A stretch of DNA of 64,000 bases from positions 2,082,594 through 2,146,593 of the forward strand of contig OZ241379.1 of NCBI GenBank assembly GCA_965200685.1. Reading direction: 5' to 3'. Below are positions 2,146 through 19,482 of the stretch, piece after piece; position 1 is the stretch's first letter; every line of letters starts with the position of its first letter. The notes beneath the pieces were generated by a model. That model had not been told where the DNA came from and searched no databases. It was given only the letters and a program-made list of their open reading frames with translations. The position numbers were made by a program, and so were the translations under genes. The stretch comes from Caldilineaceae bacterium. Its GTDB lineage: Bacteria > Chloroflexota > Anaerolineae > Caldilineales > Caldilineaceae.

Positions 2146-3120
2146 TTGCGAAAACAATTTTACGGTGGGCAGGCTGTCATTGAAGGCGTGATGATGCGGG
2201 GCCGTAAGGTCATGGCAATTGCTGTACGCAACACCCAGGGCAAGATCGTCGTCCACCAAGAACCGCTCACGGCCAAAATCTATACGAGTACATGGGGGCA
2301 ATGGCCCTTTGTGCGAGGGCTGGCTCTTTTGTGGGATGCGCTCGGGTTGGGTATGCAGGCACTTATGTGGAGCGCAAACGTATTAGAGGATGATGGCGAG
2401 GAGCAAGTCGAATTTTCCGCTTCTATGGCCTGGACGACAGTTGCCACCAGTCTTGCCTTTGCTGTGGCCCTCTTTTTTCTGCTGCCCACCTTTGCCAGCC
2501 GCTGGTTCGCCGGTTTCTTCGACCACAACCCCTACCTTGACGCGGTATTTGAGGGGGGCATGCGGCTGCTTCTATTCGTACTCTACCTATGGGGGATTGG
2601 TTTTCTGCCTGATATTCGCCGAGTGTTCGCCTACCATGGAGCCGAGCATAAAGCGGTGAATGCCTATGAGGCCGGCGATACACTGACCGTTGTCCATGTA
2701 CAAAAGCACAGTGTCCAACATACCCGTTGCGGCACAAGTTTCCTGCTCTACATTCTCGTACTCAGCATTTTGCTTTTCGCACCCCTCACATTTGCTTGGG
2801 TCGGACAGACTTGGCTGGCGTTGCTGCTGCGTTTCGTCACCCGGCTGTTGCTCGTTCCCGTGGTGGCCGCAATCGCCTACGAAATGATACGCTTCAGTGC
2901 CATTCATGAGAGCAACCGCTTGATGCGTCTTTTGATTGCCCCGGGCCTGTTGCTCCAGCGTATGACGACCCGTGAACCGGATGATGCGATGGTCGAATGC
3001 GCGCTAGCCGCGCTGCTCCCTGTCCTCGCCGCGGATGGAGTTGTCGTTGATGTGGGCTTGGCGGATATGGGCGAGGATGCAGCCACAACCATGCCAGCCC
3101 CGGCGATTTCCTCAGCCTAG
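2146..3120 (+). CDS. DUF1385 (YqhQ-like) family membrane protein
   Basis: 324-aa ORF. The [14 protein letters not shown] and [14 protein letters not shown] motifs plus several hydrophobic helices are the hallmarks I associate with DUF1385. The start is TTG at 2146, with GGAG about 9 nt upstream. Confidence 0.8.
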
Positions 3121-5783
3121 GAACCCCTGTACTGTCCCGGCAAGCCCTCCACAATCTCTACTGTCTCCACACTCACGGCGATGACCTTCTGCAGCAGGCC
3201 GATGATGTACTGATCATTTTCGCGGTTGGGATCATTGACGATACCGCTGCGTTTGTCTATCTTGACCCGGTACTGATCAAGGACCCATTCTAAGGCAGAC
3301 CGATTCCCTAGCCGATAGGCAAATGCTTTCTTTGGGATCCCCTCTAAGGTCAAGAAGTCGTTGTAGCGGATCGACTGTTTGTCCTTGGAGAGCCGCATCT
3401 TCTCCACCCGCCAAGTGGGGGCCTGGCCGGGCCTCTCTACCAGGGTGAGCGGATAGGCGGGCATCTGTTCATAGTTTACATGGATGTCTGCCAGACGTGC
3501 GCCGGCCTTGGCAAAGGCCCGGAAGTCGGACGACTGTGGGGTAAGGGGGATGTGTGGCAGGTCCCGCTTGAGGTTGGCTTGATACCGTTCACGATAGCCC
3601 GGGTGATGCAATAAGGCGTAAACGTAGTGGAAGATATCCCATTTGCTGATGGATTCATCCTGATACTGCCTGCGGAACTGTGCCAATGCCCAATCTGTAA
3701 TATTCTCGCGGCGGTTGCTGCCGTCTTCGTTGTAAGTGTAGAAGGGGAAACATTGGGAATTGCCAGTAAGATGCAGTTCTGGTATCTGCTGTGTCATCAG
3801 GCAGTGGAATGTTTTGTTGCTTCCGAGGCCTCTGACACAGACCGCCCGATTCTCTGTTTCCGCTGTAGGGAAGATGGACGGGAAGAGGTACACACTGTTG
3901 TTCATCAGCCGATCAAAATAAAGATACGACTTTGTAAATGGACGATAGAGGGATTGCCGAACTTTATCAATTGTAAAATACCCGGTCTTTTCCTTTTTAA
4001 GTGCCTGTTTCAAGTCGCCACTCCAACTAATTTTGCGATTATCAGAGATGACAAAATCATTTATATTCACATCATAGTTTTCCTGACGTTTCCAGCGGTC
4101 TACTTCCGCATTGTAGTGCCGAATCATGCGGTTCATGTTCTCAATGAGCACGTTGCGGTTGAAATTGTACGCCCATGCATCACGGCCCGTGACGACACCG
4201 CGACTATAACTCTTAAAGATTACATCTACCGCCTCGCCTTTCCCTGCTTTTGCTTCCTTTGTCCCCAAGGGGATAAAGGTCTCAAATTCAGCGTGGAGTC
4301 CTTCTGTGAGCCATGTATATCGCTTGTCCGGTCGTATCGCTTTCCATTCGATGTTGCGGTATTGTTCCTTTGCATCAAGATAGCCGTACTTCTCTTCCTT
4401 GCGCCACCACTCATCAACACGTGCGTAGAAGATTTCCGTTTGATCTGCCTTGTCGCGCCGCTTGACGCAAAAATTGATGCTCACACCCACTTGAATGCCA
4501 AAGACATTGTGTGTTGTCCCAGAGAGTTTTGGATTCTTACGCACGTTCCCAGCCAGATCCAGAATGTAGATGGCGTCGAAATCCTCTGCGAGGTGTTTCC
4601 GCATGCCATCGAACGCCACACCATCAAGAAAGCTGTTGTTGGTCACAAAGGCGACGATCCCTGCCTCGCCTATGCGGTCTGCTGCCCAGCGCATGGCCTT
4701 CACATAGGGATCATAGAGTGCGTTTTTATTGGTCGCGTTTGAGTCCTTTGCATAGGTCTCCCGAACCCGCTTGTCCATGGTGGCATAGGTGCGGTTCTTG
4801 TTGTTGTCATTCTCATTGACCTGCCCGATGTTGTAAGGCGGGTTGCCGATGATGACCGTAATATCCTGTTTCTTCTGATGCTCCACACGCTGTGTGTTCT
4901 CTTGGACAAACAAGCTGAGTTGGGTATCCTCGGCCAGCTCAAAGGTATCAACCAAGCAGATGCCCTCAAAGGGCGCGTACTGCCCCATCAGTTCATAGTA
5001 TTCATGCTCAATGTTCAGGGCCGCGATGTAGTAGGGCAGCAGCATCACTTCGTTGCAGTGTAGTTCCGTCTTGTACTTATGACGCAGGCTTGAGACTTTG
5101 CCCAGTTCCTGCAGGTGACGCATGACCCGCAGCATAAAATTGCCCGTACCCACGAAGGGGTCCAGCACATGTACGCCGGCATCGGCTAAAGAACGACCGA
5201 ACTCTTGGTTGAGGATAGCTTCCACGGAGCGCACCATAAACTCCACAATGGGCTGTGGTGTGTAGACGATGCCATGGGTGTCCGCGTCCTTGACGGAAAA
5301 GCCTTGGAAGAAGTTTTCGTAGACAGTGTTGAGGAAGCCCTGCTTCTCTGCATAGTCCCTGATAGTGGCTGCGGTCGTTTCAATGGCCGTGTAGAAACCC
5401 TCTAGGGGCAGGAAGAATTCATACCGGCTGAAATGCTGGCCGGTCAAGGCCTGCACCACCTCCTCGATCTCCCGTGCGATCACATTGCGGGCCACAAAGT
5501 CCGGGTTGTTGAACACCCGCCGGAAGATGCGTTCTGTCAGCAGGTGCTGGATCAGCATCTCCTCTACGGCTGCATCGGCGATGTTGGGGTTGATGGCATC
5601 TCGGCACAGAGTGGCGAAGCGGGCGAACGCCTGCCGAAAGGCCCGGTTGTGCTGCCGCTCCCCTTTGATTAAGGTCAGCAAAGACTCGGCCAGGGCCGGC
5701 ACTACCGTCTTGAACTCCTCCACTGACCAGTGCCAGCGCGCATAGGCCGGTGCCTGATAGGTATAGAAGTGGTTCGTAATCAA
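3117..5783 (-). CDS. N6-adenine DNA methyltransferase with a Type ISP-like C-terminal specificity domain. This is the N-terminally shorter tandem paralog and may be a silent or variant cassette.
   Basis: 888-aa ORF. SAM motif I is [11 protein letters not shown] and catalytic motif IV is IIGNPPYN, giving the gamma-class order. The C-terminal block ENITDWAL...[32 protein letters not shown]...ADIHVNYE resembles the LlaBIII/LlaGI-type (Type ISP) target-recognition tail. It starts at TTG exactly at the duplication breakpoint, with no convincing SD. Confidence 0.75.
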
Positions 5784-5885: not shown

Positions 5886-8800
5886 TTATAGGCAGTGGGT
5901 AAACCGGCCCGGCAAGCCTTCCACAATCTCTACTGTCTCCACACTCACGGCGATGACCTTCTGCAGCAGGCCGATGATGTACTGATCATTTTCGCGGTTG
6001 GGATCATTGACGATGCCGCTGCGCTTGTCTACCTTGACCCGGTACTGATCAAGGACCCATTCCAACGCGGACCGGTTCCCCAGCCGATAGGCAAACGCTT
6101 TCTCTGGGATCCCCTCTAAGGTCAAGAAGTCGTTGTAGCGGATAGATTTTTTGTCCTTGGAGAGCCGCATCTTCTCCACCCGCCAAGTGGGGGCCTGGCC
6201 GGGCGTCTCTACCATGGTGAGCGGGTAGGCGGGCATCTGTTCATAGTTTACATGGATGTCTGCTAGACGCGCGCCGGCCTTGGCAAAGGCCCGGAAGTCC
6301 GCGGCTTTATCTGTTGCGCCTGCCATTGGGGGCGGCATGGGGATGTGTGGCAGGTCCCGCTTGAGGTTGGCCTGATATCGCTCTCTATATTGGGGATGAT
6401 GCAGCAGGCCGTAGACATAATGGAAGATATCCCATTTGCTGATGGATTCATCCTGATACTGCCTGCGGAACTGTGCCAATGCCCAATCTGTGATGTTCTC
6501 GCGGTGCTTGCTGCCGTCTTCGTTGTAGGTGTAGAAAGGGAAGCATTGGGTTTTTTCAAGTATGTCAACGCATGGAACCATAGAAGCCATCAAGGTCTGA
6601 AAAGGTTTGTTGCTTCCGAGGCCACTGACACAGATCGCCCGATTCTCTGTTTCCGCTGTAGGGAAGATGGAGGGGAAGACGTAGACTCTCTCGATCATCA
6701 TTCTATCAAAGTACAGGTGCGACTTTGTAAAGGGACGATAGAGAGAAGCCCTTACCTTTTCGTGTGAAAAATCAGCGATTTTCCCTCTTTTCAAATTTCG
6801 TTTCAGTGTTTCGCTCCACTTAATTTTCTGGTCATTATACACCACAAACTCATCAACATTCGCCCCCTGATCCCTCTGTCGTTCCCACTTGAATACCTGT
6901 TCATTATAGCAATCGATCATCCCCTGAATATTCTCTGTAAGCACACTTCGGTTAAAATTGTATGCCCATGCATCACGGCCCGTACTGATACCACAACTAT
7001 AACTCTTAAATAATACATCCCCCACCTCGCCCTTGGTCGCCTTTGCTTCTTTGCTCCCCATAGGGAGAAAGGTATCAAACTCGGCGTGGAATCCCTCTGT
7101 AAGCCAGGTATATCGCTTGTCCGGTCGTATCGCTTTCCATTCGATATTGCGGTACTGTTCCTTTGCATCAAGATAGCCGTACTTCTCTTCCTTGCGCCAC
7201 CACTCATCAACGCGTGCATAGAAGATTTCCGTTTGATCTGCCTTGTCGCGCCGCTTGACGCAAAAATTGATGCTCACACCCACTTGAATGCCAAAGACAT
7301 TGTGTGTTGTCCCAGAGAGTTTTGGATTCTTACGCACGTTCCCAGCCAGATCCAGAATGTAGATGGCGTCGAAATCCTCTGCGAGATGTTTCCGCATGCC
7401 ATCGAACGCCACAGCGTCAAGAAAGCTGTTGTTGGTCACAAAGGCGACAACCCCCTCATCCCCTATGCGGTCCGCTGCCCAGCGTATAGCCTTCACATAG
7501 GGGTCAGAGAGTGCGTTTTTATTGGTGGCCTTTGAGGCCTTTGCATAGGTCTCCCGTACCCGCTTGTCCATGGTGGCATAGGTACGGTTCTTGTTGTTGT
7601 CGTTCTCGTTGACCTGGCCTGCGTTGTAGGGTGGGTTGCCGATGATGACCGTAATATCCTGCTTCTTCTGGTTCTCCACGCGCTGTGTGTTCTCTTGGAC
7701 AAACAAGCTGAGTTGGCTGTCCTCGGCCAGCTCAAAGGTATCAACGAGACAGATGCCCTCAAAGGGCGCGTACTGGCCCATCAGTTCATAGTATTCATGC
7801 TCGATGTTCAGGGCCGCGATGTAGTATGGCAGCAACATCACCTCGTTGCAGTGTAGTTCCGTCTTGTACTTATGACGCAGGCTTGAGACTTTGCCCAGTT
7901 CCTGCAGGTGACGCATGACCCGCAGCATGAAATTGCCCGTACCCACGAAGGGGTCCAGCACATGTACGCCGGCATCGGCTAAAGAACGACTGAACTCTTG
8001 GTTGAGGATAGCTTCCACGGAGCGCACCATGAACTCCACAATGGGTTGTGGTGTGTAGACGATGCCATGGGTGTCCGCGACTTTGACGGAAAAGCCCTGG
8101 AAAAAGTTTTCGTAGACAGTGTTGAGGAAGCCCTGCTTCTCTGAAAAGTCCGTGATAGTCGCGGCTGTGGTTTCAATGGCCGTGTAGAAACCCTCTAGGG
8201 GCAGGAAGAATTCATAACGGCTGAAATGCTGGCCGGTCAAGGCCTGCACCACCTCCTCGATCTCCCGTGCGATCACATTGCGGGCCACAAAGTCCGGGTT
8301 GTTGAACACCCTGCGGAAGATGCGTTCGGTCAGCAGGTGTTGGATCAGCATCTCCTCTACGGCTGCATCAGCGATGTTGGGGTTGATGGCATCTCGGCAC
8401 AGAGTGGCGAAGCGGGCAAATGCCTCACGAAAGGCCCGGTTGTTCTGCCGCTCCCCTGCGATTAAAGTCAGCAAAGACTCGGCTAGGGCCGGCACAACCG
8501 TCTTGAACTCCTCCACTGCCTGTTGCCAGCGCGCATAGGCCGGTGCCTGATAGGTGAAGAAGGTCTGCAGGCCCTCAATCAGCAGTTCCGGCGCAGCGAT
8601 GGGGCTGTCCCACACCCGCTGCCCCTGTTGGATGACCACCATGCGCTGCGGGGCCTGGAAGAGGATATTGTCCTGGGGGTAGCCAGTAGCCAGCTTCTTG
8701 CGGATCTCTAGATCTAGGTCATCATCGCTATCTTTCGCTTCCCAATAGCCATGGGCCAGGTTGAAGTCGTCCAACAATGCGCCATCAATGCGAATGCTGC

Positions 8801-8987
8801 GGCCATCGGCCAGCTTGCGCGTGTACTGCTCGGTTAGGGTCCAGCCGAGGGGTTGCGCGCCTGCACGCAGGATATTGGCAAATGCCGGCGCGACCGCGCC
8901 CTCATGGGCAAAACCAAGCTCTGTCAGCTTGCTCAATTCGCTGAAATAGGCTGCGATGGCTTGTTGTGTGGCTTTGCGCTGGAGCAT
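5886..8987 (-). CDS. Type IIG/ISP-like fusion: PD-(D/E)xK-like N-terminal module, N6-adenine methyltransferase and specificity domain (no helicase)
   Basis: The track ORF is 5886..9107. I place the start at the ATG at 8987 (MLQRKATQQAIAAYF...). The 40 upstream codons are Cys/Trp-rich and overlap the preceding gene by 110 nt. The N-terminus has RIDGALLDDFNLAHGYWEAKD, a D..D-x9-E-x-K pattern. It is followed by [19 protein letters not shown] and the same C-terminal tail as the downstream paralog. Confidence 0.75.
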   Translation of the reverse strand: MLQRKATQQAIAAYFSELSKLTELGFAHEGAVAPAFANILRAGAQPLGWTLTEQYTRKLADGRSIRIDGALLDDFNLAHGYWEAKDSDDDLDLEIRKKLATGYPQDNILFQAPQRMVVIQQGQRVWDSPIAAPELLIEGLQTFFTYQAPAYARWQQAVEEFKTVVPALAESLLTLIAGERQNNRAFREAFARFATLCRDAINPNIADAAVEEMLIQHLLTERIFRRVFNNPDFVARNVIAREIEEVVQALTGQHFSRYEFFLPLEGFYTAIETTAATITDFSEKQGFLNTVYENFFQGFSVKVADTHGIVYTPQPIVEFMVRSVEAILNQEFSRSLADAGVHVLDPFVGTGNFMLRVMRHLQELGKVSSLRHKYKTELHCNEVMLLPYYIAALNIEHEYYELMGQYAPFEGICLVDTFELAEDSQLSLFVQENTQRVENQKKQDITVIIGNPPYNAGQVNENDNNKNRTYATMDKRVRETYAKASKATNKNALSDPYVKAIRWAADRIGDEGVVAFVTNNSFLDAVAFDGMRKHLAEDFDAIYILDLAGNVRKNPKLSGTTHNVFGIQVGVSINFCVKRRDKADQTEIFYARVDEWWRKEEKYGYLDAKEQYRNIEWKAIRPDKRYTWLTEGFHAEFDTFLPMGSKEAKATKGEVGDVLFKSYSCGISTGRDAWAYNFNRSVLTENIQGMIDCYNEQVFKWERQRDQGANVDEFVVYNDQKIKWSETLKRNLKRGKIADFSHEKVRASLYRPFTKSHLYFDRMMIERVYVFPSIFPTAETENRAICVSGLGSNKPFQTLMASMVPCVDILEKTQCFPFYTYNEDGSKHRENITDWALAQFRRQYQDESISKWDIFHYVYGLLHHPQYRERYQANLKRDLPHIPMPPPMAGATDKAADFRAFAKAGARLADIHVNYEQMPAYPLTMVETPGQAPTWRVEKMRLSKDKKSIRYNDFLTLEGIPEKAFAYRLGNRSALEWVLDQYRVKVDKRSGIVNDPNRENDQYIIGLLQKVIAVSVETVEIVEGLPGRFTHCL

Positions 8988-8997
8988 GGGTACAGTG

Positions 8998-11900
8998 CTA
9001 TTGTTGCGTTGGTTCTGTAGGCGCGGGCTCCATAAGCAGGAGCTGCGGGCGTAGGCTCGGATGCAGGCGCACCAATTCCGTTCGATATCGATAAATGCTT
9101 GCCACATCCTTCAGTTCAAAGCCGTGCATTGTCCGCACAAAGGTGATCTGAAATGGATCTCCTGACAATAAACGCGTGACCCGTAACCCCTGCAGAACGT
9201 CCTCTGTCAGGTCGCTATCGTGGTTGCCGGAAACTGCGGCAAATTCTACCGGCAGCCCGTGAGATGCCAGCCGGTCTGAGACATCGTGGTTGGCAGCAGG
9301 TTTGGCAGCAGTCCACACGTTTTCCAAATAGCGCAGCATGGTGGCTGCATGGGAGGGACCAGTCATGTCTACGTCAAAGGGCCGCGGTGGGGCCTGGGCA
9401 TCTGGTGCAGCAGCCCCGCCTCTGCTTTGTTCGGGCGCGGCCCGCGATGCTGCATCGACCTGGGGACCGTGTACATGCCGTGTTGGGGACGAGGCGTCCC
9501 GCCAGAGGAGATGTTCTAGATTGTATTCGTGGGCTAAGGTTCGCACGAGATCCGTACGCGCTTGATTGGCCTCGCTATCCTGTAGGCCGGTCACCGCCAT
9601 TTTCACACTTTCGCGGATGTAATTGAACAGGGTTTCGGCGAGGGGTGAGGCAGATCCTGTTTCGATGAATTCTGCTGGCGAACGCCGCGCATACGAGGCT
9701 GCATGTTCCCCGTTGAGCAGAGATGCTAATTGCCGGCGACGACGCAGAGATGTCCAGATTTCCCATAAACGCTCTTCCCCTTGCCGTCCTTCTAGGTCTT
9801 GGCGATTGCGTAGGATTGCTTGGCAGCGTGCCCACAATTTTGCTGTGAAATGGGGACGATACAGATGGGAGCCGGCCGTATGCGGCGGGAGTGTAGGTAT
9901 GCCCGTATCAACAGACCATTCACGCAGCTCCTCGCAGGTGTCCTCAAGGGCATGGGCCATGTGGCGTACCATCTGTTCTAGATGCCCATACGCCCGCACA
10001 AGTCCATGATGCACACGCTCCTGCACGTGGGCAGTCAGTTCAAGGCTGGCGAGCTCTACCCGTTCTTGTCGTAATGTCTGCGCGCGGCGTAGCCGCAGCC
10101 GATATGCTAGGATGGCACCTGACAACGCGCCGGCCATCAGCCCTAAAAATGTAGTTCCATTGACTTCCAGATCGAACGGTTGCCGGAACATGACAACATG
10201 GAGCCAGGCCAGCAGCGCAATGCCACCGAGCAGACAGAGAGCACGAACCAATGAAGCGGGCAGAGAGGGCTGGTCGGCAATGGCCCCTAGATAGCGGATA
10301 TGCCACTCTCGGACTTGCGGCTGGCGTTTCATCTCTGCCCCAGGGGGACTAACGGAAAGGTCTTTGAGTTCGGTCAGCCATTGCTGGAGCTGCTGCTGCG
10401 CCCGCAGAATCCCGCATGGCTGGGCACTGAGCAAGGTGAGCAGATAGTCTCGCATCTGACGAGAGGTGGCCGGCAGAAAGCGCTGGTCGCGCGGGTTGAG
10501 AGGCAGGCCATCCTCACCGAGAGCATCAAGCCCCCAGGCCTTGTCCAGTACAGTGGGCCCGATGCTCTCCTCAAGACGTGCCAACACTGTCTGAAATTGC
10601 TCGTCAAAGGCAGTCTGCCAGCCGATGGGGTCACGGCCGCGCAGTTTGAGGGCCATGGCCGCTGGCAGTATATATTCAGGATGGATGGCAAGTTGGTCCA
10701 GTGATTGAGGGGCCTTGTCCTCAAACAGATCCGGGAGCTGTGAGATGAGCTGGCCCAATACCTGTGGCGGCGTTGCCCCCAATTCCGCTAACCCCAGTGG
10801 CGAGTTACTTCCCCCCTCTTCACGCTCCACGGGTGTGAGGATCTGCTCCCGCAGCAGCCGCTTTTCTTCTTGCTCTTGCAGGGTCTGCAAGATATACGTT
10901 AGCGGCACATAATCTGTGGCTGCGCCCAGCAAGCTATAGGGGCGTTCCCTGGCGTTGCGGAGATCGATTCCAATCTGTTCATCGACAAAAGCGGCCCCAT
11001 CCGCAGCGATGAGGGCCTGTAGGCTGTTGCCAACCAGAACAGACAGTTCATAGCTGCTGTGGGCCAGCCCCTGGTTGCTTTTCTCCCGGTCCAGCAGATA
11101 GATGCGGTCAAACAGCCGGCGGCCCAGCCATGAACCCCAGGGTCCTGTGATCTGTGACCTGGGCCCAGGGGTGTCACTGGTTGTCCAGGGGTCATTGCCT
11201 ACTACAGGATCTTCCCCCAACAAGGGCAAAAATTCATTGAGATTTGCCCGGCGCAGGCCGGTAAGTGCCTCTAGTTCCGCGATGGCAGCATAGCAGGAGG
11301 CATCCTCAATGCGCCGGCTGTTGTCGGTGGCATAGCTCCCTGTGGCGAAGATGCCCACGACTTGCGAGATGTGACGCTGCCCCACATCATGGAGCTGATG
11401 TGCGACCATCGGCCAGATCAGCGCGGATGTCAACGGTTCATAGAGCGGTGCGACCACGTAAAGCGTCGTCTGTACGAAGGGGTCGGTGGGCGCATGGATG
11501 TCCGCGCGGATGGGGTTGATGATGTTGGAGGAGAAGGCCCTGGCAATCTCATCCCCGGCCCGCAGCGCGGCCCGAAAAGCAACCCGCCGGGTCATAGCGG
11601 TGGGCTGTGGCCTGTACTCTGTATTGGCTCCTGCCCATTCAGGATCCCTGGGTGTTTCGTTTTCCTGCCATGGCAGCGGCACTAGGACCTCGGCGGCTGC
11701 CTCGCGCAGCAGGTCTGCCCAACGCTGTGCTTGGCCAAACCCACTGGCCACGGGCCAATGGCCGCTTTTACTGGGCAATGATGTTGCGCTGCTCGTGCTT
11801 CGCAAGCGCTGTAGTAAGCCTTCTAGATAGAATGGCGGCAGGCGTCTGTCCTGCAGGGTGAGCAATTGGAGGGCCATCTGGCCATCGGGCCCGACCTGTT

Positions 11901-12078
11901 CTTCCGCCATAAGAGTGGCAAAGCGGGCAATGTGCGTCAGGTCCGGGCCATCTATGGCTGCGGCCATCCGTTGTTCTTGGGATTCCCGCAGCCGCGAGGC
12001 CAGGTGGAGCATTGTCTGCAAGCCCCAGCCTCCGAAACAGAGGATGGCGGCTCGGCTACGGGTAGCACCAGGAATCAT
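8998..12078 (-). CDS. Membrane-anchored paralog of the tubulin/FtsZ-like protein, with degenerate GTP-binding motifs
   Basis: 1026-aa ORF whose start overlaps the upstream stop (ATGA). It aligns by eye to the 839-aa neighbour at three points. (1) AILCFGGWGLQTMLHLA matches TLIVGVGGMGSNTVRAV. (2) TLYVVAPLYEPLTSALIWPMVAHQL matches LVYVVSSLCGGTGAGMFMDVAHRV. (3) QVVGIFATG...CYAAIAELEAL matches RVVGIFYLP...AYAALKELNYF. Two hydrophobic helices lie mid-protein (LVRALCLLGGIALLAWLHVVMF and FLGLMAGALSGAILAY). Confidence 0.6.
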   Translation of the reverse strand: MIPGATRSRAAILCFGGWGLQTMLHLASRLRESQEQRMAAAIDGPDLTHIARFATLMAEEQVGPDGQMALQLLTLQDRRLPPFYLEGLLQRLRSTSSATSLPSKSGHWPVASGFGQAQRWADLLREAAAEVLVPLPWQENETPRDPEWAGANTEYRPQPTAMTRRVAFRAALRAGDEIARAFSSNIINPIRADIHAPTDPFVQTTLYVVAPLYEPLTSALIWPMVAHQLHDVGQRHISQVVGIFATGSYATDNSRRIEDASCYAAIAELEALTGLRRANLNEFLPLLGEDPVVGNDPWTTSDTPGPRSQITGPWGSWLGRRLFDRIYLLDREKSNQGLAHSSYELSVLVGNSLQALIAADGAAFVDEQIGIDLRNARERPYSLLGAATDYVPLTYILQTLQEQEEKRLLREQILTPVEREEGGSNSPLGLAELGATPPQVLGQLISQLPDLFEDKAPQSLDQLAIHPEYILPAAMALKLRGRDPIGWQTAFDEQFQTVLARLEESIGPTVLDKAWGLDALGEDGLPLNPRDQRFLPATSRQMRDYLLTLLSAQPCGILRAQQQLQQWLTELKDLSVSPPGAEMKRQPQVREWHIRYLGAIADQPSLPASLVRALCLLGGIALLAWLHVVMFRQPFDLEVNGTTFLGLMAGALSGAILAYRLRLRRAQTLRQERVELASLELTAHVQERVHHGLVRAYGHLEQMVRHMAHALEDTCEELREWSVDTGIPTLPPHTAGSHLYRPHFTAKLWARCQAILRNRQDLEGRQGEERLWEIWTSLRRRRQLASLLNGEHAASYARRSPAEFIETGSASPLAETLFNYIRESVKMAVTGLQDSEANQARTDLVRTLAHEYNLEHLLWRDASSPTRHVHGPQVDAASRAAPEQSRGGAAAPDAQAPPRPFDVDMTGPSHAATMLRYLENVWTAAKPAANHDVSDRLASHGLPVEFAAVSGNHDSDLTEDVLQGLRVTRLLSGDPFQITFVRTMHGFELKDVASIYRYRTELVRLHPSLRPQLLLMEPAPTEPTQQ

Positions 12079-14594
12079 GGCACATTACCACCGGGGTGTA
12101 CAACATCCCAGGGATTGTACTCCCTGTTGAGGAACTGCTGGTTGCTGGGATGACGGGAATCTTCTTCGGTGATTTCGGGCAGATCGACCCAAGCGGGATT
12201 GAGATGAAATTCCTCCCGCACGGGGAAATCTTGGCTGTTTTCATACTGTTCCTGAAATTCATCTAGGCGGTCGATGAGGGTCACGGGCAGGCCATGGACA
12301 ATCCAGACAGCATCCATCCGCCCTGTGTCGCCGGTCGGCACCCATTTCAAGTCCTCTTGGCCGATCATGGCCAGGGCCAACTCTGCATCGTCTTCCCGGG
12401 CGGAGGGCGTGGCTGCCAGACGGATGTGTTCTAGGTCTGCATCATGAAAGCTGAAGCGGTCCGCGTCCCAGCGAATGTAAGGGTTCAGCCGGTCCAACCA
12501 TTGCTGCACCCGGTTGTTGGGGAGCGGGCGGGCCTGCTGCACCTCCTCCCCATATTGCACGCCGATGATGTGGCGGATGTCTATCTGTTGCTTTACTCTG
12601 CCCAACAGGCCCTGATCTTCGCTGAGTGTCTTCGTCAGCATGGTGAACAGATTTTCAGCATTGATTGCATTGCTGTAGTACAGAATCGTATCAATGAGCG
12701 TTCCGAGCAGAGCGTGCCAATCGCTGGGATAAACAGACTGGGCTGCGTTGTGATAGAAATGTTGTAGGTAATCCCGCCCGACTACACCGGTTTCTAGTTC
12801 GTAGTAGGTACTGGTGCTGGGCGTGCCATCGGGGATGCGGGGGTCGATGCGGTCTGCAGCTTGGCTGGTCTCCTGATTGGCGCGTAGCAGCGCGGCACCA
12901 GCATTGTTGATCTGCATGCGGAAGACGTCTCGCATCTGTGCGCCGTACACCGAGAGCCGTTCTACCAGTATTCGTTCCAGCATATCCCGGCGTTGGTTGA
13001 GTCGGGCGCGAGCCTTGCGGTTCCGTAGATCCAGAGCCCGGTCCCGGGCCTGACGAGGACTGAGGGCCGAGAGCAGGAGATCGCCGAAGCCACTGGCTAT
13101 CTGGCCGATTCGTTCGATATGTCCTCCTTCCTGGGCCAACAATGTGCGCCAGCGGGCCCGGTCCTCCTCTGCTACTGGTTGGTTGTTCAGCAGCAAAAGG
13201 CGTTGTTTGGGCAGGGATTCTAGAGGGGCGGTGGCAGGGTTCAACGGCCCTAGCAGATCTGTCAAGGCCAGAGCTCCTCGCAAGCCGAGTTCGAGAACTG
13301 CCTGACGGAAGGCAGTGTCCACGATTTCCTTAAAGCCTGTGTATGCGCTGCGGCTTTCCGCGATCTCGTCGGCTAATTCCTCTAGCCGGTCACTGTCTAG
13401 GGAAAGATAGCGGGCCCGCAATTCCAGCAAAAGCCCCTGCCAGATCGTGGTAGCCTTCTGGCGGTCTGTGTTGCTGATGGGCTGATGGGGGTCATTGAGA
13501 GAGGGGCCGGCCGCAAGGCGTCGTAGGCAATCCCCCAAAAAGGCCTGCTGCCAGAAATTCACCAGTGCTTCGTCCGGCGTGACAATGGCAGAGGTGGCAA
13601 AGCTACTGTAGACTAGGTAGTTCTTTTGCCGGCGTTCGCCTATCACCTCTGCGGCCGCGATGGCTCCGGACATGCGTTCCCTGACGATGTTCACCTCTAG
13701 GCCGAGGATTTCGCTGCTCAGGTGGCTGATGGCTGTCAGTTGGATGAGATGGGCAGCCAGTTTCTCTGCATCAGCTTTGCGGGCTAGGCTGCGGCCGTCT
13801 CGGTTGGTGCGCCCGACTAAGAAGATAAAATCAAAGGGGGCATAGGGGGTGTCGGGCAGGGCCCGCTGTTCGCTTGGGTACAGTTCATGGAACTGTTGCG
13901 TTTCTTGAAAGTAATTCAACTCCTTGAGGGCTGCATAGGCATTGGCCTTAATACGCCGTCGTTGGAGATCACTATGTATCTCCTCCTCCAGCACATCCGG
14001 CAGGTAGAAGATACCGACAACCCGGGCATTGCTACGCACGAGGGCGCGCACCCTGTGCGCCACATCCATAAACATCCCCGCGCCTGTGCCACCGCACAAG
14101 CTGCTCACCACATACACAAGCTGGTAGTTGCTCATCACCGGAAAGCCCCGGTTCTGGGCCATCTCCAGGTCCCGAATCTTATCTAAGGAGGCATACTTCG
14201 TCTCCAACAGGCGCTTGAATGTTACATAATTACGGAAAAAGGAGAGCCGGCCGATGGGCCGTAACTGTTTGGCCCCGTTGTGAATGTACCCCAAAGGAAT
14301 GGAGGGATAGTTCCACCAACGAGCGATCTCCGGATGGTTGTCTAGGTTGGAGACCAAGCGTGTGGCGTCAAATTTGCCCATGTAGGCGATTTCATCAGCA
14401 TGGAGAGGCTCTTGGTCGAGTCGGTTGACCAAAGGCTCTGTGTCGAGGGCCAGCAATTGGATCATGGCGGGCAAGGATTCTCGGCCCCATACATTACGTA
14501 GCCGGCGTTTGACCGCGCGCACTGTGTTGCTTCCCATGCCGCCCACGCCCACAATTAGCGTCGGATAGATAGTTGGCTTATCGCCGAGCTGCAT
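12075..14594 (-). CDS. Tubulin/FtsZ superfamily GTPase-like protein (Tubulin_2 / FtsZl1-like)
   Basis: 839-aa ORF. The N-terminal GVGGMGSN resembles the FtsZ T1 loop GVGGGGxN. NGAKQLRPIGRLSFF is present. SSLCGGTGAGMFMD matches the tubulin/FtsZ signature [SAG]GGTG[SAT]G. There are no predicted TM helices. Confidence 0.75.
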   Translation of the reverse strand: MQLGDKPTIYPTLIVGVGGMGSNTVRAVKRRLRNVWGRESLPAMIQLLALDTEPLVNRLDQEPLHADEIAYMGKFDATRLVSNLDNHPEIARWWNYPSIPLGYIHNGAKQLRPIGRLSFFRNYVTFKRLLETKYASLDKIRDLEMAQNRGFPVMSNYQLVYVVSSLCGGTGAGMFMDVAHRVRALVRSNARVVGIFYLPDVLEEEIHSDLQRRRIKANAYAALKELNYFQETQQFHELYPSEQRALPDTPYAPFDFIFLVGRTNRDGRSLARKADAEKLAAHLIQLTAISHLSSEILGLEVNIVRERMSGAIAAAEVIGERRQKNYLVYSSFATSAIVTPDEALVNFWQQAFLGDCLRRLAAGPSLNDPHQPISNTDRQKATTIWQGLLLELRARYLSLDSDRLEELADEIAESRSAYTGFKEIVDTAFRQAVLELGLRGALALTDLLGPLNPATAPLESLPKQRLLLLNNQPVAEEDRARWRTLLAQEGGHIERIGQIASGFGDLLLSALSPRQARDRALDLRNRKARARLNQRRDMLERILVERLSVYGAQMRDVFRMQINNAGAALLRANQETSQAADRIDPRIPDGTPSTSTYYELETGVVGRDYLQHFYHNAAQSVYPSDWHALLGTLIDTILYYSNAINAENLFTMLTKTLSEDQGLLGRVKQQIDIRHIIGVQYGEEVQQARPLPNNRVQQWLDRLNPYIRWDADRFSFHDADLEHIRLAATPSAREDDAELALAMIGQEDLKWVPTGDTGRMDAVWIVHGLPVTLIDRLDEFQEQYENSQDFPVREEFHLNPAWVDLPEITEEDSRHPSNQQFLNREYNPWDVVHPGGNVP

Positions 14595-14674: not shown

Positions 14675-17600
14675 TCACCAGTCGGATGCCCAGGGATTGC
14701 CAGACCCTGAGCGGTATTTGTTCCAGTCGCTGTTGGCCTGCTCTGCATCATGCGCTCCGTCAGTCGCTGTTGATTCCGCTCCCCACATGCCAGTGTCCTG
14801 TGGCCAGGGTGCTGTAGCCTGTGGGTTTGTATTGGTCTCGGGCCATGGAGCATTGTCTGTGGCAGTTTCACTGGCCCGGTGCTCCTCGGCCGCGGGGGTT
14901 GGTTCCTCGTCTATGTTATAGCCACGGCCACGGGTCCGGGCGATGATGACCAACAGCAGCAGAAAGAACAGGGGGCCGGAGCAAAATACCAGTGGAAATG
15001 TGTAAAACGGACGTAGCCACCACTCGACATAGCGTTGGTAGAAGGTTGGGCTGCGGAAGCTGGCATCCACGGAACGGGTTTCATGGGGCAGGCCCGCTAT
15101 GCCCAACACCAGATCTCCGCTATAAAATGAGCCATACAGGGGATCTTTGGGTATGGCCTTGCGGGCGACTAGGGTGATGGGAACCTCATAATAGCCGTCG
15201 GCGTCGGGCGTCCCGCTGATCTCAATCGCTGCTGCTTCCAAAAAAGATTCGTCCAGTGTCTGGGGCCCTTCGTCCGTTTCCCCTGCGGCAGTGAGTCCTA
15301 ACACTTGTACCACAAAAGGCGTCTTGCCATCGAATCGTAGTAGGAGTGATGCTGTGGCTTGTTCGCCTGCCAGCCCCAGATCACCGAAATGCAGGGATCC
15401 TGCGATGCGCCATTCAAGCCCGCGAATTTGCAGCCGGTAGGGAAGGGTATTGGGCAGAACGTCGAAATCTTCGCTCGGGCCGAGCAGGCGCAGAACACCA
15501 CTACAGCCGCCGGATAGCACAGGTACTTGGCTCTGCAAGCGAAGCGGAAGGAGCCCCGCTCTGGTAGGGGTAGTTTCACTGGGGCTCCCTTGGAACTGTA
15601 CATCAGCGGCTGTCACGGTCAGGCCGTCGCAGGTACTTTCGTTCACTTCCACCGTGAGCCGGAAGGGAGTGCCCTCCACAAAATCGACTGGTAGCAGAAT
15701 CGTCTCATCGAGTCGGAAATTGGGGGAAGTATCAAACAGTAGTTCGCCAAAGTCTGCTTCCTGCACTGCAATGTGGGCTGCGGCGCGGGAAACAGTAAAC
15801 ATCACAGGCAAGGAGGGCGCAGGGCGGATCAGAACATCCATGGGCAAACCGGCTGGACTGAGGACGGACAAGCGTAGGTCGCCCTCGTATGCACCAGGGC
15901 GCAGAAGATCGAGACCGTCCATCTGCAGGGTCGCGGTTTGGCTGCCTACTGCTGGCACATCAACCGCAAACTGTAAGTCAACATCACTGACAACTTCGCC
16001 GCTATCCGTCCGTCGTAAGGCCAGGGAGCCTACTAGGCTGCCGATATCGTATTTCGCGGAAGTACCAGCCTGAACCGTCACTGTCCAGCCTGTGGCTGGC
16101 ATTTTCAGCAGATCGAGCGTAGGCGGTAGGCCGCGCACATAGACTGCTGGCTCAACATCTAATAGGGCCCGTGCGAAACTGCCGAAGTGGAACCCCTGAT
16201 CATTGGCCATTGCGGTGAGCAAAAACAACACCTCATAGCTATGCCCATCTTGGGGCACAAACCCGTTGTCCGTGCAGATGCGTTCCCGGCAGGAGAGGGC
16301 CTTCTGGTATACTGGCTGCCGGCCGCTGTTGTCATCAAAGGGGGCAACGATCCCCGAAAGCTGAGAGGTTGCACTGTCCGCCTCGGTAATGTCCATCACG
16401 AATGCGGTTGCTTGCAACCCCTGTATGGGTAGGCCGGGCCCAAACCCCACCCTGAGTTGCAGGCTGCCATCGCCGAGTATGCCGGGATCGTTCACTGATG
16501 GCGAGTGAACCTGTACATTCGGCAGATCTGTGCGGGCGACTAGCCGGAAGGAGCGGCGCAACTGCAAGGCGTTTTCGTCATCCCCCAATTGTACCATGAC
16601 TTCTTCGGGGCTGCTGGTAAGCTGCACCGCGCCAATCGCATCTCGTCCCAACCCATCCTGGCCGAGGAGGGGGATGCGTGTTGTGCCATTGAGCAACAGC
16701 GGCTCGGCAGCAGCGGGCCCAGCCCCTCGTACTACTAGAAGAGGTGTCTGGCCGGCTGGGTAGAAACGCATGGAGGCAGGGCTGCCCTGAATACTGGGCG
16801 GCGGGAAGAGGAGCTCGGGGAAGCTGTCCGCCTGCACGACAGCAAAGCTGCTCAGGTCCGATGTTTCCGCGGTCCATTCTCCGGCCGGCAGAGGGCTGCC
16901 CGCCACCAGCAGATCGACATTGTCATCCGCGAGAACGCTCACAGTCCGCATGGGGGCCGCGTCCCGCCGAACACTGCTGATGGCTGCTTGAGGAGCGATG
17001 AAAGCCAATTCACCCACCCCATGTTCCTCGCGAATGGAAACGGCTAGATTGCCATAGACATTGCGTTGGCTGACGACCGAGCGGTCTGATTTCATTTCCG
17101 CGAAAACTTCGCTGAAAATCCGCAGAATATCCGGCGCACTTTTGGCCTCTTGGACTCGGGCTAACTGATTTTTGAGGAAATCGCCTGGGCAGCCGGCGTT
17201 CGGATTGCAGAGGAGTACCGGATAGATCTGCACGTCCGCGGCCTGCATCTGTGCAAGCTGTTCGCTGACCGTCTCGCGCTGGTTATAGATAGCATCGGGG
17301 GCGGTCGGCTCGCCATCGGTGAGCAGCAGCACATATTGGCTACGGTTCGGCTGCCGGCCGGCCGTGAGCAGACGCAGAGCCTCTTGTAGGCCCAAGTCCA
17401 TACGTGTATAGCCTCTGGTGCCATAATTTAGCGGCGGCTGTAGGGAAGCTGCTAAGCGACGGCGGTTCTCGCGGCTGCCGACTTCTTGTAGACGCCCCAA
17501 GGAGCCGACCCCCTCAGCGCCGCTGTCAAAGCGCAAGACAGCGATGCGGTCGTCTGGATCTGCCAGCGCAATCAGCAAACGGGCAGCACTATAGCGCAGC

Positions 17601-17848
17601 TCGTTCGGGTCGCTCGGTGGATTATAGCTATTGCCGCCACAGGGCGGGCCATAGGGAGGCCCATCCTGTGGCCAAGGCCAGCAGGTAGCCATACTGCCGG
17701 AGTCGTCAAGCATCACAACGACATCAATTTTCAGTGCTCTTTCTGTTTGCGCGTGTAGGGGCGCAACAAATTCTGCTGCCCACAAGGCGACACACCCCAA
17801 CAGTAGCCAGATGAACACGACTCGAAGCCGTTGAACGACGATTCTCAT
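14675..17848 (-). CDS. Large vWA-domain ectoprotein with an N-terminal signal/anchor and a C-terminal TM helix plus a cytoplasmic Trp-rich acidic tail
   Basis: The track ORF starts at the TTG at 17872. I prefer the ATG at 17848 (MRIVVQRLRVVFIWLLLGCVALWAAEF). The MIDAS motif is VVVMLDDSGSM (DxSxS), followed by LLLTDGEPT. A beta-rich ectodomain of about 800 aa follows, then the TM segment PLVFCSGPLFFLLLLVIIARTRGRG and an 87-aa tail. Confidence 0.8.
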   Translation of the reverse strand: MRIVVQRLRVVFIWLLLGCVALWAAEFVAPLHAQTERALKIDVVVMLDDSGSMATCWPWPQDGPPYGPPCGGNSYNPPSDPNELRYSAARLLIALADPDDRIAVLRFDSGAEGVGSLGRLQEVGSRENRRRLAASLQPPLNYGTRGYTRMDLGLQEALRLLTAGRQPNRSQYVLLLTDGEPTAPDAIYNQRETVSEQLAQMQAADVQIYPVLLCNPNAGCPGDFLKNQLARVQEAKSAPDILRIFSEVFAEMKSDRSVVSQRNVYGNLAVSIREEHGVGELAFIAPQAAISSVRRDAAPMRTVSVLADDNVDLLVAGSPLPAGEWTAETSDLSSFAVVQADSFPELLFPPPSIQGSPASMRFYPAGQTPLLVVRGAGPAAAEPLLLNGTTRIPLLGQDGLGRDAIGAVQLTSSPEEVMVQLGDDENALQLRRSFRLVARTDLPNVQVHSPSVNDPGILGDGSLQLRVGFGPGLPIQGLQATAFVMDITEADSATSQLSGIVAPFDDNSGRQPVYQKALSCRERICTDNGFVPQDGHSYEVLFLLTAMANDQGFHFGSFARALLDVEPAVYVRGLPPTLDLLKMPATGWTVTVQAGTSAKYDIGSLVGSLALRRTDSGEVVSDVDLQFAVDVPAVGSQTATLQMDGLDLLRPGAYEGDLRLSVLSPAGLPMDVLIRPAPSLPVMFTVSRAAAHIAVQEADFGELLFDTSPNFRLDETILLPVDFVEGTPFRLTVEVNESTCDGLTVTAADVQFQGSPSETTPTRAGLLPLRLQSQVPVLSGGCSGVLRLLGPSEDFDVLPNTLPYRLQIRGLEWRIAGSLHFGDLGLAGEQATASLLLRFDGKTPFVVQVLGLTAAGETDEGPQTLDESFLEAAAIEISGTPDADGYYEVPITLVARKAIPKDPLYGSFYSGDLVLGIAGLPHETRSVDASFRSPTFYQRYVEWWLRPFYTFPLVFCSGPLFFLLLLVIIARTRGRGYNIDEEPTPAAEEHRASETATDNAPWPETNTNPQATAPWPQDTGMWGAESTATDGAHDAEQANSDWNKYRSGSGNPWASDW

Positions 17849-17890
17849 AGCAAAATCATTGCCTAGGATCAATCAAGCATGCCCGCAAAG

Positions 17891-17919: not shown

Positions 17920-19371
17920 TCACTCTCCACTGGCATTGTTTTCTTCAAGGATCTCTGTAAGCGCAGCGACGAACTGGTCCGTGGGCAATGCGCCAGGGAT
18001 CAGGCGGCCTTGGTCGCTATACAGGACGATAAATGTCGGCGTGCCCCGCACGAAGGGCAGCCCTTCCTCGATATCATGCTGCACATCCTGCACAACCGCA
18101 TCGTCTGTCAGGCAGGTTGCAAATTCGTTGGTGTCTAGGTCGGATGCAGCGGCCAGCTCGATAAAATAGTCGCTGTTTTCCGCCTGACTCCACTCTTCTG
18201 TGTCCTCAAACAGGCGTTTGTGGAACGTCCAAAATGCGTTTTGCTGGGCTGCACATTCGGCAGCGATGGACGCGGAAAAAGCATAGGGGTGGATGTTTTC
18301 AATGGGAAAATGCTTGAACACCCACATGACATCTCCTACCTTAATAAACTCTTCATCCAGAATCGGCTGTGTTGTCAGCGTGTGGCGACGGCAGTAGGGA
18401 CACTGAAAGTCGCTAAATTCGATAACGACGAGAGGCGCATCACTGTTCCCATAATAGGTATCACCCGCGACAGTATAACCGGGACGCTGCGGGTCCGGGC
18501 TTAAGCCTTCTGCTGTAGCCCAGAAGGGGACTTGTTGGTTGCCCTGTTGTTGGCTCGCGGCCGCGCCTTGCGGTGAGCCGCCAGTGCGGATCGTTTCGAT
18601 CCACTCGGCAAAGACATCATAGGGCTGGGCCCCCCTCAAGCTGAACGATTGGCCTGTCTCTTCATGCACAAAGCGAAAACTAGGGGTCCCACTGAAGCCG
18701 AAGGACTGGGCTTCGGTCAGGCTTTCGGATACCCGCGCCAAGGGCACTGCAGTATTGGCCATGCACGCGCCGTATTGGGTCGCATCTGCCCCGATCTCTT
18801 GGACCAGCTCCGCAAAAAATGATAGGGCCACATCCAGAGATGCCCACTCCTGCTGGGTGAAGAAGAGCTGGTCGTGCATCTGCCAGAAGAGGATAATATC
18901 CTGCTCGGCGACACAGTTGGCGGCAATCGCGGCCGGGAGAGCATTGGGATGTAGAGAGGACAGAGGCATATCCCGGAACACGAATTTCACAAGGCCGGCT
19001 TCAACAAATCTGGCCAGCAAAGCCGGTTCGGTCTGGATAACGTGCCGGGCACAGAAGGGGCATTGGTAGTCGCTGTATTCGTAAATAGTAATCGCCGCGT
19101 TCGGGTCACCCCGGAAGGGGTACCCTTCGGCAGTAAAGCCCACAGGAAGGCCTTTGTACATGGCCTGCCCAGGGGCGGGAGAGAGGGGTTCTGGCTCCTC
19201 GTCTGCGGTGTTTGTGGCGGTAGGTTGCGCTTGCAGAACATCGACTGCTGTGTCCTTTGTGGGGACCGGGCTAGTGGCTAGAGAAATCCCACTCTCGCCG
19301 GCCACACAGCCGGAGATGAACAGAAGGGCAAGAACGAGGGAGAGCTGCGGGCATATGTTTGCTAAACTCAT
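17920..19371 (-). CDS. Lipoprotein with two tandem DsbA-like thioredoxin-fold domains (thiol:disulfide oxidoreductase)
   Basis: There are two CxxC active sites in DsbA-like context (YSDYQCPFCARH and FSDFQCPYCRRH). The lipobox is LLFISGC. I place the start at the ATG at 19371 (MSLANICPQLSLVLALLFISGC), which has GAGGAG 7 nt upstream. The track ORF extends to 19428. Confidence 0.85.
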   Translation of the reverse strand: MSLANICPQLSLVLALLFISGCVAGESGISLATSPVPTKDTAVDVLQAQPTATNTADEEPEPLSPAPGQAMYKGLPVGFTAEGYPFRGDPNAAITIYEYSDYQCPFCARHVIQTEPALLARFVEAGLVKFVFRDMPLSSLHPNALPAAIAANCVAEQDIILFWQMHDQLFFTQQEWASLDVALSFFAELVQEIGADATQYGACMANTAVPLARVSESLTEAQSFGFSGTPSFRFVHEETGQSFSLRGAQPYDVFAEWIETIRTGGSPQGAAASQQQGNQQVPFWATAEGLSPDPQRPGYTVAGDTYYGNSDAPLVVIEFSDFQCPYCRRHTLTTQPILDEEFIKVGDVMWVFKHFPIENIHPYAFSASIAAECAAQQNAFWTFHKRLFEDTEEWSQAENSDYFIELAAASDLDTNEFATCLTDDAVVQDVQHDIEEGLPFVRGTPTFIVLYSDQGRLIPGALPTDQFVAALTEILEENNASGE

Positions 19372-19482
19372 GTAAAGGCTCCTCATGGGACGAATCCAAT
19401 GGAAAGTGCGACCGGTGATTGGCCGCATTCAATTCGCTTCACTCCCTGTATTGTAACCGTGAGAGCAACAGACCGCAATTTA

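Follow-up and report, generated by a model that had tools for sequence, protein, structure and literature searches.

A degenerate FtsZl1 paralog with a predicted membrane hairpin, a putative pseudo-GTPase, is encoded next to an active-type FtsZl1 gene in Caldilineaceae

Gene layout of the locus

We analyzed a stretch of 64,000 nucleotides from a Caldilineaceae bacterium (assembly GCA_965200685.1, contig OZ241379.1, positions 2,082,594 to 2,146,593; here referred to as the window), focusing on two adjacent minus-strand genes for tubulin-like proteins. The upstream gene encodes an 839-aa protein, P1, that matches Pfam Tubulin_2 (PF13809) over residues 13-352 with an E value of 6.9e-60. Tubulin_2 corresponds to the FtsZl1 family of Makarova & Koonin 2010 (PMC2875224). 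The downstream gene encodes a larger protein, P2, which a first-pass annotation made from the sequence alone had taken for an inactivated copy of P1 that keeps the fold and has lost the GTP-binding signatures. Both open reading frames (ORFs), 8998..12078 and 12075..14594, are present as that annotation described them, and they form part of the following cluster:

8998..12078 (-): P2, a 1026-aa degenerate paralog of an FtsZl1/Tubulin_2 protein and putative pseudo-GTPase (ORF; profile-profile homology to P1)
12075..12078 (-): ATGA, overlap of the P1 stop and P2 start codons, pointing to translational coupling (sequence)
12075..14594 (-): P1, an 839-aa active-type FtsZl1/Tubulin_2 protein with T1 (G16-N23) and T4 (C167-G173) intact (Pfam; orthologs)
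14675..17872 (-): membrane protein with a von Willebrand factor A (vWA) domain (Pfam VWA, E = 3.6e-6; hydropathy; motif)
17920..19428 (-): secreted double thioredoxin/DsbA-like protein, often first in the cluster (Pfam Thioredoxin_4, E = 4.9e-48, and DSBA)

Homology between P2 and P1

Direct comparison of the two proteins was uninformative. Pairwise BLASTP of P1 against P2 gave nothing significant (best E = 0.6), and P2 on its own scored 12.4 bits against Pfam Tubulin_2 (E = 0.091), below the gathering score of 27 bits; this subthreshold match, of P2 residues 226-401 to profile positions 183-347, falls at a sensible position. The NCBIfam and PADLOC libraries contained no match to P2, and no catalogued defence system corresponds to this one. 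Since BLASTP is too insensitive at the divergence that separates P1 from P2, and the Pfam score of P2 was also too weak, we tested the homology claim with profiles built from sets of P1 and P2 homologs drawn from Caldilineaceae and other Chloroflexota.

With narrow family profiles, hhalign aligned the N-terminal core (P2 156-272 with P1 108-229) at P = 9.3e-5 and the C-terminal domain at P = 5.2e-5. The corresponding scores, 41.2 and 35.8, lie about 9 standard deviations (SD) above those of column-shuffled controls (n = 150 each; means of 16.4 ± 2.8 and 13.4 ± 2.6, maxima of 25.0 and 22.4), and reversed profiles scored 12.3 and 11.5, respectively. Broad profiles, made from distant P2-family members and from the active genes adjoining distant members, extended the alignment to three blocks: the N-domain core (P2 155-416 with P1 107-364; E = 1e-23, probability 99.6%, 231 columns), the C-terminal alpha/beta domain (P2 about 911-1005 with P1 about 691-789; E = 5.7e-10, probability 96.6%) and the S1-T1-H1 region (P2 6-33 with P1 8-35; E = 3.5e-6, probability 87.6%). 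Between the helical middles of the two proteins, profile comparison detected no similarity. The three blocks are collinear, which argues that the entire gene was duplicated, and the secondary structure of an AlphaFold2 (AF2) model, together with the homology of the C-terminal domain, places in P2 the N-domain, extended helical region and C-terminal globular domain that make up the FtsZl1 architecture.

These alignments bear directly on those drawn by eye in the first-pass annotation, because hhalign returns the same pairings. In the T4 region, P2 204-229 TTLYVVAPLYEPLTSALIWPMVAHQL is paired with P1 158-182 QLVYVVSSLCGGTGAGMFMDVAHRV; in the strand and helix that follow, P2 VVGIFATG..CYAAIAELEAL is paired with P1 VVGIFYLP..AYAALKELNYF; and at the C terminus, P2 FQITFVRTMHGFELKDVASIY is paired with P1 MDAVWIVHGLPVTLIDRLDEF. 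The collinear similarity that had been described as running from N to C terminus holds in the form of the three blocks above, and the significance of the hidden Markov model comparison, with its shuffled, reversed and broad-profile runs, rules out the merely compositional likeness that the annotation had named as the way in which its claim might fail.

The link between P2 and Tubulin_2 was made through distant members as well as by profile-profile comparison. A search of 1.84e9 representative proteins with the P2 profile returned 187 proteins at E <= 0.001. Those full-length proteins that we examined belong to the P2 family, and the set holds far more distant full-length members at about 20% identity. 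Pfam Tubulin_2 matched 17 of 31 broad-family members at E <= 0.01 (best E = 9.4e-15), and four of the nine members scanned individually exceeded the 27-bit gathering score (P0326, 32.0 bits; P0338, 33.5 bits; P0353, 30.2 bits; P0310, 29.7 bits). This profile evidence makes P2 a genuine, though highly diverged, paralog of its neighbor P1.

Fate of the GTP-binding signatures

The alignment allowed the nucleotide-contacting motifs of the two proteins to be compared at the following positions:

10834..12078 (-): P2 N-terminal Tubulin_2-like domain, residues 1-415 (hhalign; Pfam matches of relatives; AF2)
12016..12036 (-): P2 T1-like glycine loop, kept, F15-G-G-W-G-L-Q21 (conservation; alignment to P1 T1)
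11599..11787 (-): P2 T3-equivalent region, decayed, residues 98-160 (many indels; low conservation)
11410..11451 (-): P2 T4 replacement, A210-PLYEPLTSALIW-P223 where SLCGGTGAGMFMD is expected (hhalign alignment)
14076..14096 (-): P1 T4 signature, C167-GGTGAG173 (ORF; ortholog alignment)
9064..9354 (-): P2 C-terminal alpha/beta domain common to P1, residues 909-1005 (hhalign; shuffle control)

At T4, Y213-EPLTSA219 of P2 aligns to C167-GGTGAG173 of P1, and the change from GGTGAG to YEPLTSA reported in the first-pass annotation is therefore confirmed. The GGTG motif is invariant across 22 P1 orthologs. In P2 the FtsZl1 signature GGGTG(S/T)G is absent, and what stands in its place is itself constrained: P2 proteins of Caldilineaceae show no variation at P211, E214, P215, L220, W222 and P223. 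The T4 glycines are also missing in all 26 of the 26 more distant members that were inspected, for example SLTEDAASSILWPL and ATWEPSGCALLWPA. A second signature has fared differently. The T3-like block of P1, H105-NGAKQLRPIGR116, is the most conserved stretch of that protein, with a mean top-residue frequency of 0.97 over the HNGAKQLRPIGR block in the P1 family, as against 0.40 over residues 98-160 in P2. This part of P2 is rich in indels and has the lowest conservation within the N domain, and the AF2 model gives its residues 98-112 and 140-158 a predicted local distance difference test (pLDDT) score below 50.

The claim that the GTP signatures had been lost thus stands for T4, and applies to the T3-like loop as well, but does not extend to T1, where P2 keeps the G-x-G-x-x-G pattern (GGWG) and with it the glycine-rich loop that follows strand S1 in FtsZl1 proteins. 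The annotation had also raised the case of an intact alternative pocket in P2. Neither a Walker A motif (GxxxxGK[ST]) nor NKxD occurs in the P2 sequence, and a P-loop or dynamin-like pocket was rejected on that basis. To our knowledge, the backbone amides of the T4 glycines hold the phosphates in all characterized FtsZ and tubulin proteins, and because of this universal role we infer that P2 has lost canonical GTP binding. With the fold of a GTPase family retained by homology, T4 replaced and T3 decayed, P2 would fall among the pseudo-GTPases.

Conservation within P2 is greatest on the face that would line the pocket. The S4-"T4"-H4 segment reaches 0.81, S6 with the DREKSNQG loop 0.82, and S1-T1-H1 and S5-H5 0.78 each. 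Because these segments are strongly conserved they must be under constraint, and the pocket face of P2 looks as if it had been given a new use, as an interface or a filled pocket, rather than having simply decayed.

A predicted membrane hairpin and its resemblance to ClyA-family toxins

The paralog had been said to have gained a membrane hairpin, and a candidate hairpin lies in the helical middle of P2:

10102..10251 (-): P2 hydrophobic (transmembrane) hairpin, residues 610-659, followed by RLRLRR (hydropathy; model)

Hydropathy analysis finds a strong hydrophobic helix at residues 610-631, a short loop and a weaker hydrophobic helix at 644-659 ahead of the RLRLRR segment, and the AF2 model has helices at 606-631 and 637-721. 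The feature is specific to the dead lineage: two central hydrophobic segments occur in 28 of 31 P2-family members but were absent from all 13 active partners; P1 likewise has no hydrophobic segment by hydropathy. This topology would put the large parts of P2 on either side of the hairpin in the cytoplasm. The full-length P2 model has an overall pLDDT of 67, with alternating strands and helices at a pLDDT of about 70-90 in the N domain, and its predicted element order agrees with that of the P1 model, which is of low confidence.

The region of P2 from about residue 500 to 730 (window positions 9900-10600), with a helix, the hydrophobic hairpin and a long helix, resembles ClyA-family alpha-pore-forming toxins. 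Foldseek matched P2 to AhlB, SmhB, MakA and YaxA at E values of about 6e-3 to 0.3, with a probability of up to 0.99 and template modeling (TM) scores of at most 0.32, and the broad P2 profile (A3) matched MakA among PDB sequences at an E value of about 1e-4 (24 bits). The MakA match was missing with the narrow profile (A1), and the Pfam HBL and ClyA families did not match. AhlB, SmhB, MakA and YaxA share with P2 the arrangement of long helices around a hydrophobic helical hairpin, whereas P2, unlike secreted toxins, is predicted to be a cytoplasmic membrane protein with large cytoplasmic domains. The similarity may go no further than architecture.

The vWA protein encoded upstream of P1 also appears to be membrane bound. 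It has an N-terminal signal or transmembrane segment (residues 18-36), an intact metal ion-dependent adhesion site (MIDAS) motif, DDSGS, at residues 56-60, and a C-terminal transmembrane segment (959-977) followed by a cytoplasmic tail of about 90 residues that is acidic and rich in Trp.

Conservation of the gene order

Species-representative genomes yielded 93 stretches with a P2 relative, all from Caldilineaceae, Caldilineales or other Chloroflexota, and 80 loci were kept. In 76 of these 80 loci the gene immediately upstream of P2 is P1, in 70 a vWA gene lies upstream, and in 56 the DsbA-like gene is present, in the order Dsb-vWA-P1-P2. P2 thereby shows the operon association with a vWA protein that is a feature of FtsZl1. 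Four loci have no adjoining P1; one of them is a short contig (L071), and the other three hold stand-alone P2-like genes. Pairing extends to the distant metagenomic relatives, all eight of those looked up being directly downstream of a P1 homolog, and T1 (GLGG[STA]G) and T4 (CGGTG) are intact in five of the five distant P1 homologs with complete N termini. A vWA gene precedes the distant pair in three of the eight (L082, L087 and L088). Whether active and dead copies always occur together was one of the checks put forward in the first-pass annotation; they do so in 76 of 80 loci and in 8 of 8 distant relatives, with the three stand-alone P2-like genes as departures from the rule.

Additional genes were seen in the distant clusters (L082, 9897-14579; L087, 459-2890 and 11992-20208; L088, 1162-3270). 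These include an upstream AAA ATPase with a weak Vps4_C match, a small conserved downstream gene of 165-183 aa, a HerA/DUF87-like ATPase, and Ser/Thr kinases with WD40/beta-propellers. As for the DsbA-like protein, it may belong to the same operon as the other three genes, where it might, for example, form disulfides in the external vWA protein, which contains Cys.

Selection on P2

We compared the window with a relative that is 97% identical (L089) to estimate the ratio of nonsynonymous to synonymous substitution rates (dN/dS). This ratio was 0.049 for P1, 0.222 for P2, 0.237 for the vWA protein and 0.189 for the DsbA-like protein. Over 70 loci, the identity of the P1 homolog to its window counterpart co-varies with that of the P2 homolog (r = 0.90), with P2 diverging about 2.2 times faster than P1. 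An unbroken P2 ORF with invariant motifs is present in all 80 loci. A decaying pseudogene is rejected by the dN/dS value together with the intact ORF across loci. By these measures P2 is functional and under purifying selection, with constraint relaxed relative to P1, as expected of a non-catalytic partner.

A pseudo-GTPase partner of P1 and competing explanations

We consider it probable, at roughly 0.62, that P2 acts as a pseudo-GTPase subunit and, at the membrane, tethers or regulates P1, the active FtsZl1 protein. Under this model, the whole FtsZl1 gene, with its N-terminal GTPase-like domain, helical middle and C-terminal alpha/beta domain, would have undergone an ancient duplication that gave rise to P2. 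In the P2 lineage the T3-like loop would then have decayed, the T4 glycines would have been exchanged for another, strongly conserved segment containing Glu and Pro, and a hydrophobic helical hairpin would have been inserted into the helical middle. P2 would be made together with P1 by way of the overlapping stop and start codons and would no longer bind or hydrolyze GTP in the canonical manner. It would probably form a complex with P1, associating through the tubulin-like domain and the common C-terminal domain, and in its presumed anchoring role would tether, nucleate, cap or regulate P1 assemblies on the cytoplasmic side of the membrane. Indirect support for a P1-P2 heterodimer comes from the ATGA overlap and the conserved adjacency of the two genes. 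As for the vWA protein, with its MIDAS outside and its tail inside, it might be the extracytoplasmic part of the same transmembrane machine.

Several observations weigh against this model. T1 is kept in P2 as G16-G-W-G19, whose outer glycines, G16 and G19, reach 90% conservation or more across the broad family, and the high conservation of the replaced T4 segment and of the loops after S5 and S6 also fits a ligand pocket that has been re-purposed. Structure comparison did not recover the fold: Foldseek of the full-length P2 model, a search dominated by the long helices, found no tubulin or FtsZ in PDB (best, gamma-tubulin at E = 0.77) and only coiled-coil proteins in BFVD. The P1 model, with a pLDDT of 50 overall and below 50 in the N domain because its alignment was too shallow, was too poor for comparison or for a fold search, and the P1-family profile matched only CetZ (3zid, E = 0.39) among PDB sequences, with no FtsZl1 relative detectable there. 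Finally, the stand-alone P2-like genes (L060, 10001-13066; L069, 9950-13213; L070, 10001-13219), which are about 34% identical and degenerate at T4, have neither a P1 nor a vWA gene within 10 kb on either side, so that P1-P2 adjacency is not obligatory.

The conservation pattern is the basis of an alternative in which P2 is not nucleotide dead but has a remodeled pocket, formed by T1 with the EP...WP, GSYA.D and DREKSNQG segments, that binds a nucleotide or another small ligand, making it a sensor or regulatory subunit instead of an inert scaffold. The G-x-G-x-x-G of T1 is kept, the segments lining the pocket (0.81, 0.78 and 0.82) have the top conservation in P2, and E214, N335 and E344 are invariant. 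We nevertheless judge this alternative unlikely, given that the T4 glycines have been swapped for residues that include Pro and Glu, that the T3-like loop is unconserved and indel rich, and that P2 contains no alternative P-loop motif. Less probable still is that P2 acts independently of P1 in a membrane function of its own, for example as a ClyA/MakA-like inserting module, with adjacency a mere remnant of tandem duplication. The stand-alone genes of L060, L069 and L070 are consistent with independence, as is the likeness of the middle region to alpha-pore-forming toxins by two methods (Foldseek, E about 6e-3; profile, E about 1e-4). However, that likeness comes at TM scores no higher than 0.32 and disappears with the narrow profile, the gene order persists among relatives with as little as about 20% identity, the stop codon of P1 overlaps the start codon of P2, the divergence of the two proteins is correlated (r = 0.90), and the tubulin-like and C-terminal domains common to P1 are kept under selection. 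There is, lastly, the explanation that P1 and P2 resemble each other by composition or chance and that P2 is an unrelated membrane protein. A nonsignificant BLASTP comparison, a score for P2 alone below the Pfam threshold and a fold search without tubulins speak for it, but it does not account for three collinear profile-profile matches of up to E = 1e-23, scores about 9 SD over column shuffles, or relatives that pass the Pfam Tubulin_2 cutoff; we regard it as refuted by the shuffles, the broad profiles and these relatives, and hence as extremely improbable.

If P2 is indeed a pseudo-GTPase partner of P1, a wider proposal can be framed, although we hold it only tentatively and think it doubtful as a whole. 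Chloroflexota FtsZl1 systems would then be obligate two-paralog machines, in which a membrane-embedded, nucleotide-dead tubulin-like protomer works with a soluble, GTP-hydrolyzing one, a division of labor that would have evolved separately from that in alpha/beta-tubulin. Through the pair, an extracellular vWA/MIDAS receptor would be linked to assembly under GTP control at the inner membrane face, and the helix-hairpin-helix of the dead protomer might even be a switchable ClyA/MakA-like insertion device.

Relation to known systems

P1 is a regular member of the FtsZl1 family, and P2 has the same architecture and the same operon context with a vWA gene. P2 differs from the family in lacking the GGGTG(S/T)G-type T4 and the T3-like loop, in falling below the Pfam cutoff and in carrying a transmembrane hairpin. 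Because it fails on the T4 signature and the Pfam cutoff, we file it as a degenerate FtsZl1 offshoot and not as a regular member. The same layout has been described in Chloroflexus aggregans, in which Cagg_1317 is a vWA protein, Cagg_1316 is FtsZl1 and Cagg_1315 is a 1083-aa protein labeled COG0576/GrpE (PMC2875224). One of our distant relatives, P0372 (1084 aa), gives a spurious GrpE match of the kind that the Cagg_1315 label reflects, and from the layout, the length and this shared spurious match Cagg_1315 is probably a member of the P2 family. A homolog search with P0372 returned no named Chloroflexus protein.

Alpha/beta-tubulin and BtubA/B resemble P1 and P2 in being pairs of tubulin-fold paralogs that are encoded or used together and whose nucleotide-handling roles have diverged. 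In tubulin and Btub, however, both subunits have T1-T4 intact and both bind GTP, and their asymmetry is one of nucleotide exchange and of the T7 residue supplied by the partner. P2, which lacks T3 and T4, does not share this property of two intact subunits. The first-pass annotation had likened P2 to the non-exchangeable site of alpha-tubulin; since alpha-tubulin keeps its GTP site, the analogy survives only as a division of labor between paralogs.

In functional terms, P2 comes closest to pseudo-GTPases and to the membrane tethers of FtsZ. What it has in common with pseudo-GTPases and with inactive FtsZ-like domains is a fold kept under selection after motif loss and a presumed regulatory or scaffold role. 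The FtsZ-like domain of plant ARC3 is one inactive example. Another is provided by archaeal FtsZ paralogs that lack the motifs (PMC2875224). P2 is set apart from these by its place in the FtsZl1 branch, its predicted membrane-embedded hairpin and its translational coupling to an active paralog. In the role proposed here, the linking of a soluble tubulin-like polymer to the cytoplasmic membrane, P2 would correspond to FtsA, ZipA and SepF. Those tethers have folds unrelated to FtsZ and bind its C-terminal peptide, whereas the candidate tether P2 is a degenerate paralog of the polymerizing protein itself.

The literature that could be searched contained no account of an inactivated FtsZl1 paralog. 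Reading the "hypothetical" or "GrpE-like" neighbor as a dead, membrane-anchored copy would give the FtsZl1 system a candidate membrane tether and regulatory partner, which it lacked before, and would explain a conserved member of the operon. It would also add a bacterial pair of active and inactive paralogs to the tubulin superfamily, with a bearing on the evolution of heteromeric cytoskeletal polymers. The culturable relatives Caldilinea, Litorilinea and Chloroflexus make the system experimentally accessible.

Other genes in the window

Downstream of P2 lie two tandem, closely related genes, 3117-5783 (-) and 5886-8987 (-), with a Type ISP coupler, an N6-methyltransferase and C-terminal specificity domains; Pfam found no nuclease or helicase part in either. 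The long ORF 5886..9107 overlaps the P2 stop codon, but its likely start is an ATG at about 8987. Another locus (L001) has a single Type ISP-like gene at the same position, with 70% identity. On the other side, 19646-22434 (+) is divergent from the cluster and encodes sulfate assimilation proteins, one with a PAPS_reduct domain (CysD-like) and one a fused EF-Tu-type GTPase and adenosine 5'-phosphosulfate kinase (CysNC-like); L089 has these genes beside the cluster as well. Farther along, 27329-32233 (-) encodes a 1634-aa protein made almost entirely of leucine-rich repeats. GC skew is unusually high where this gene lies, at about 0.2 in the 28-32 kb interval, and positions 1-2000 of the window have a similar skew.

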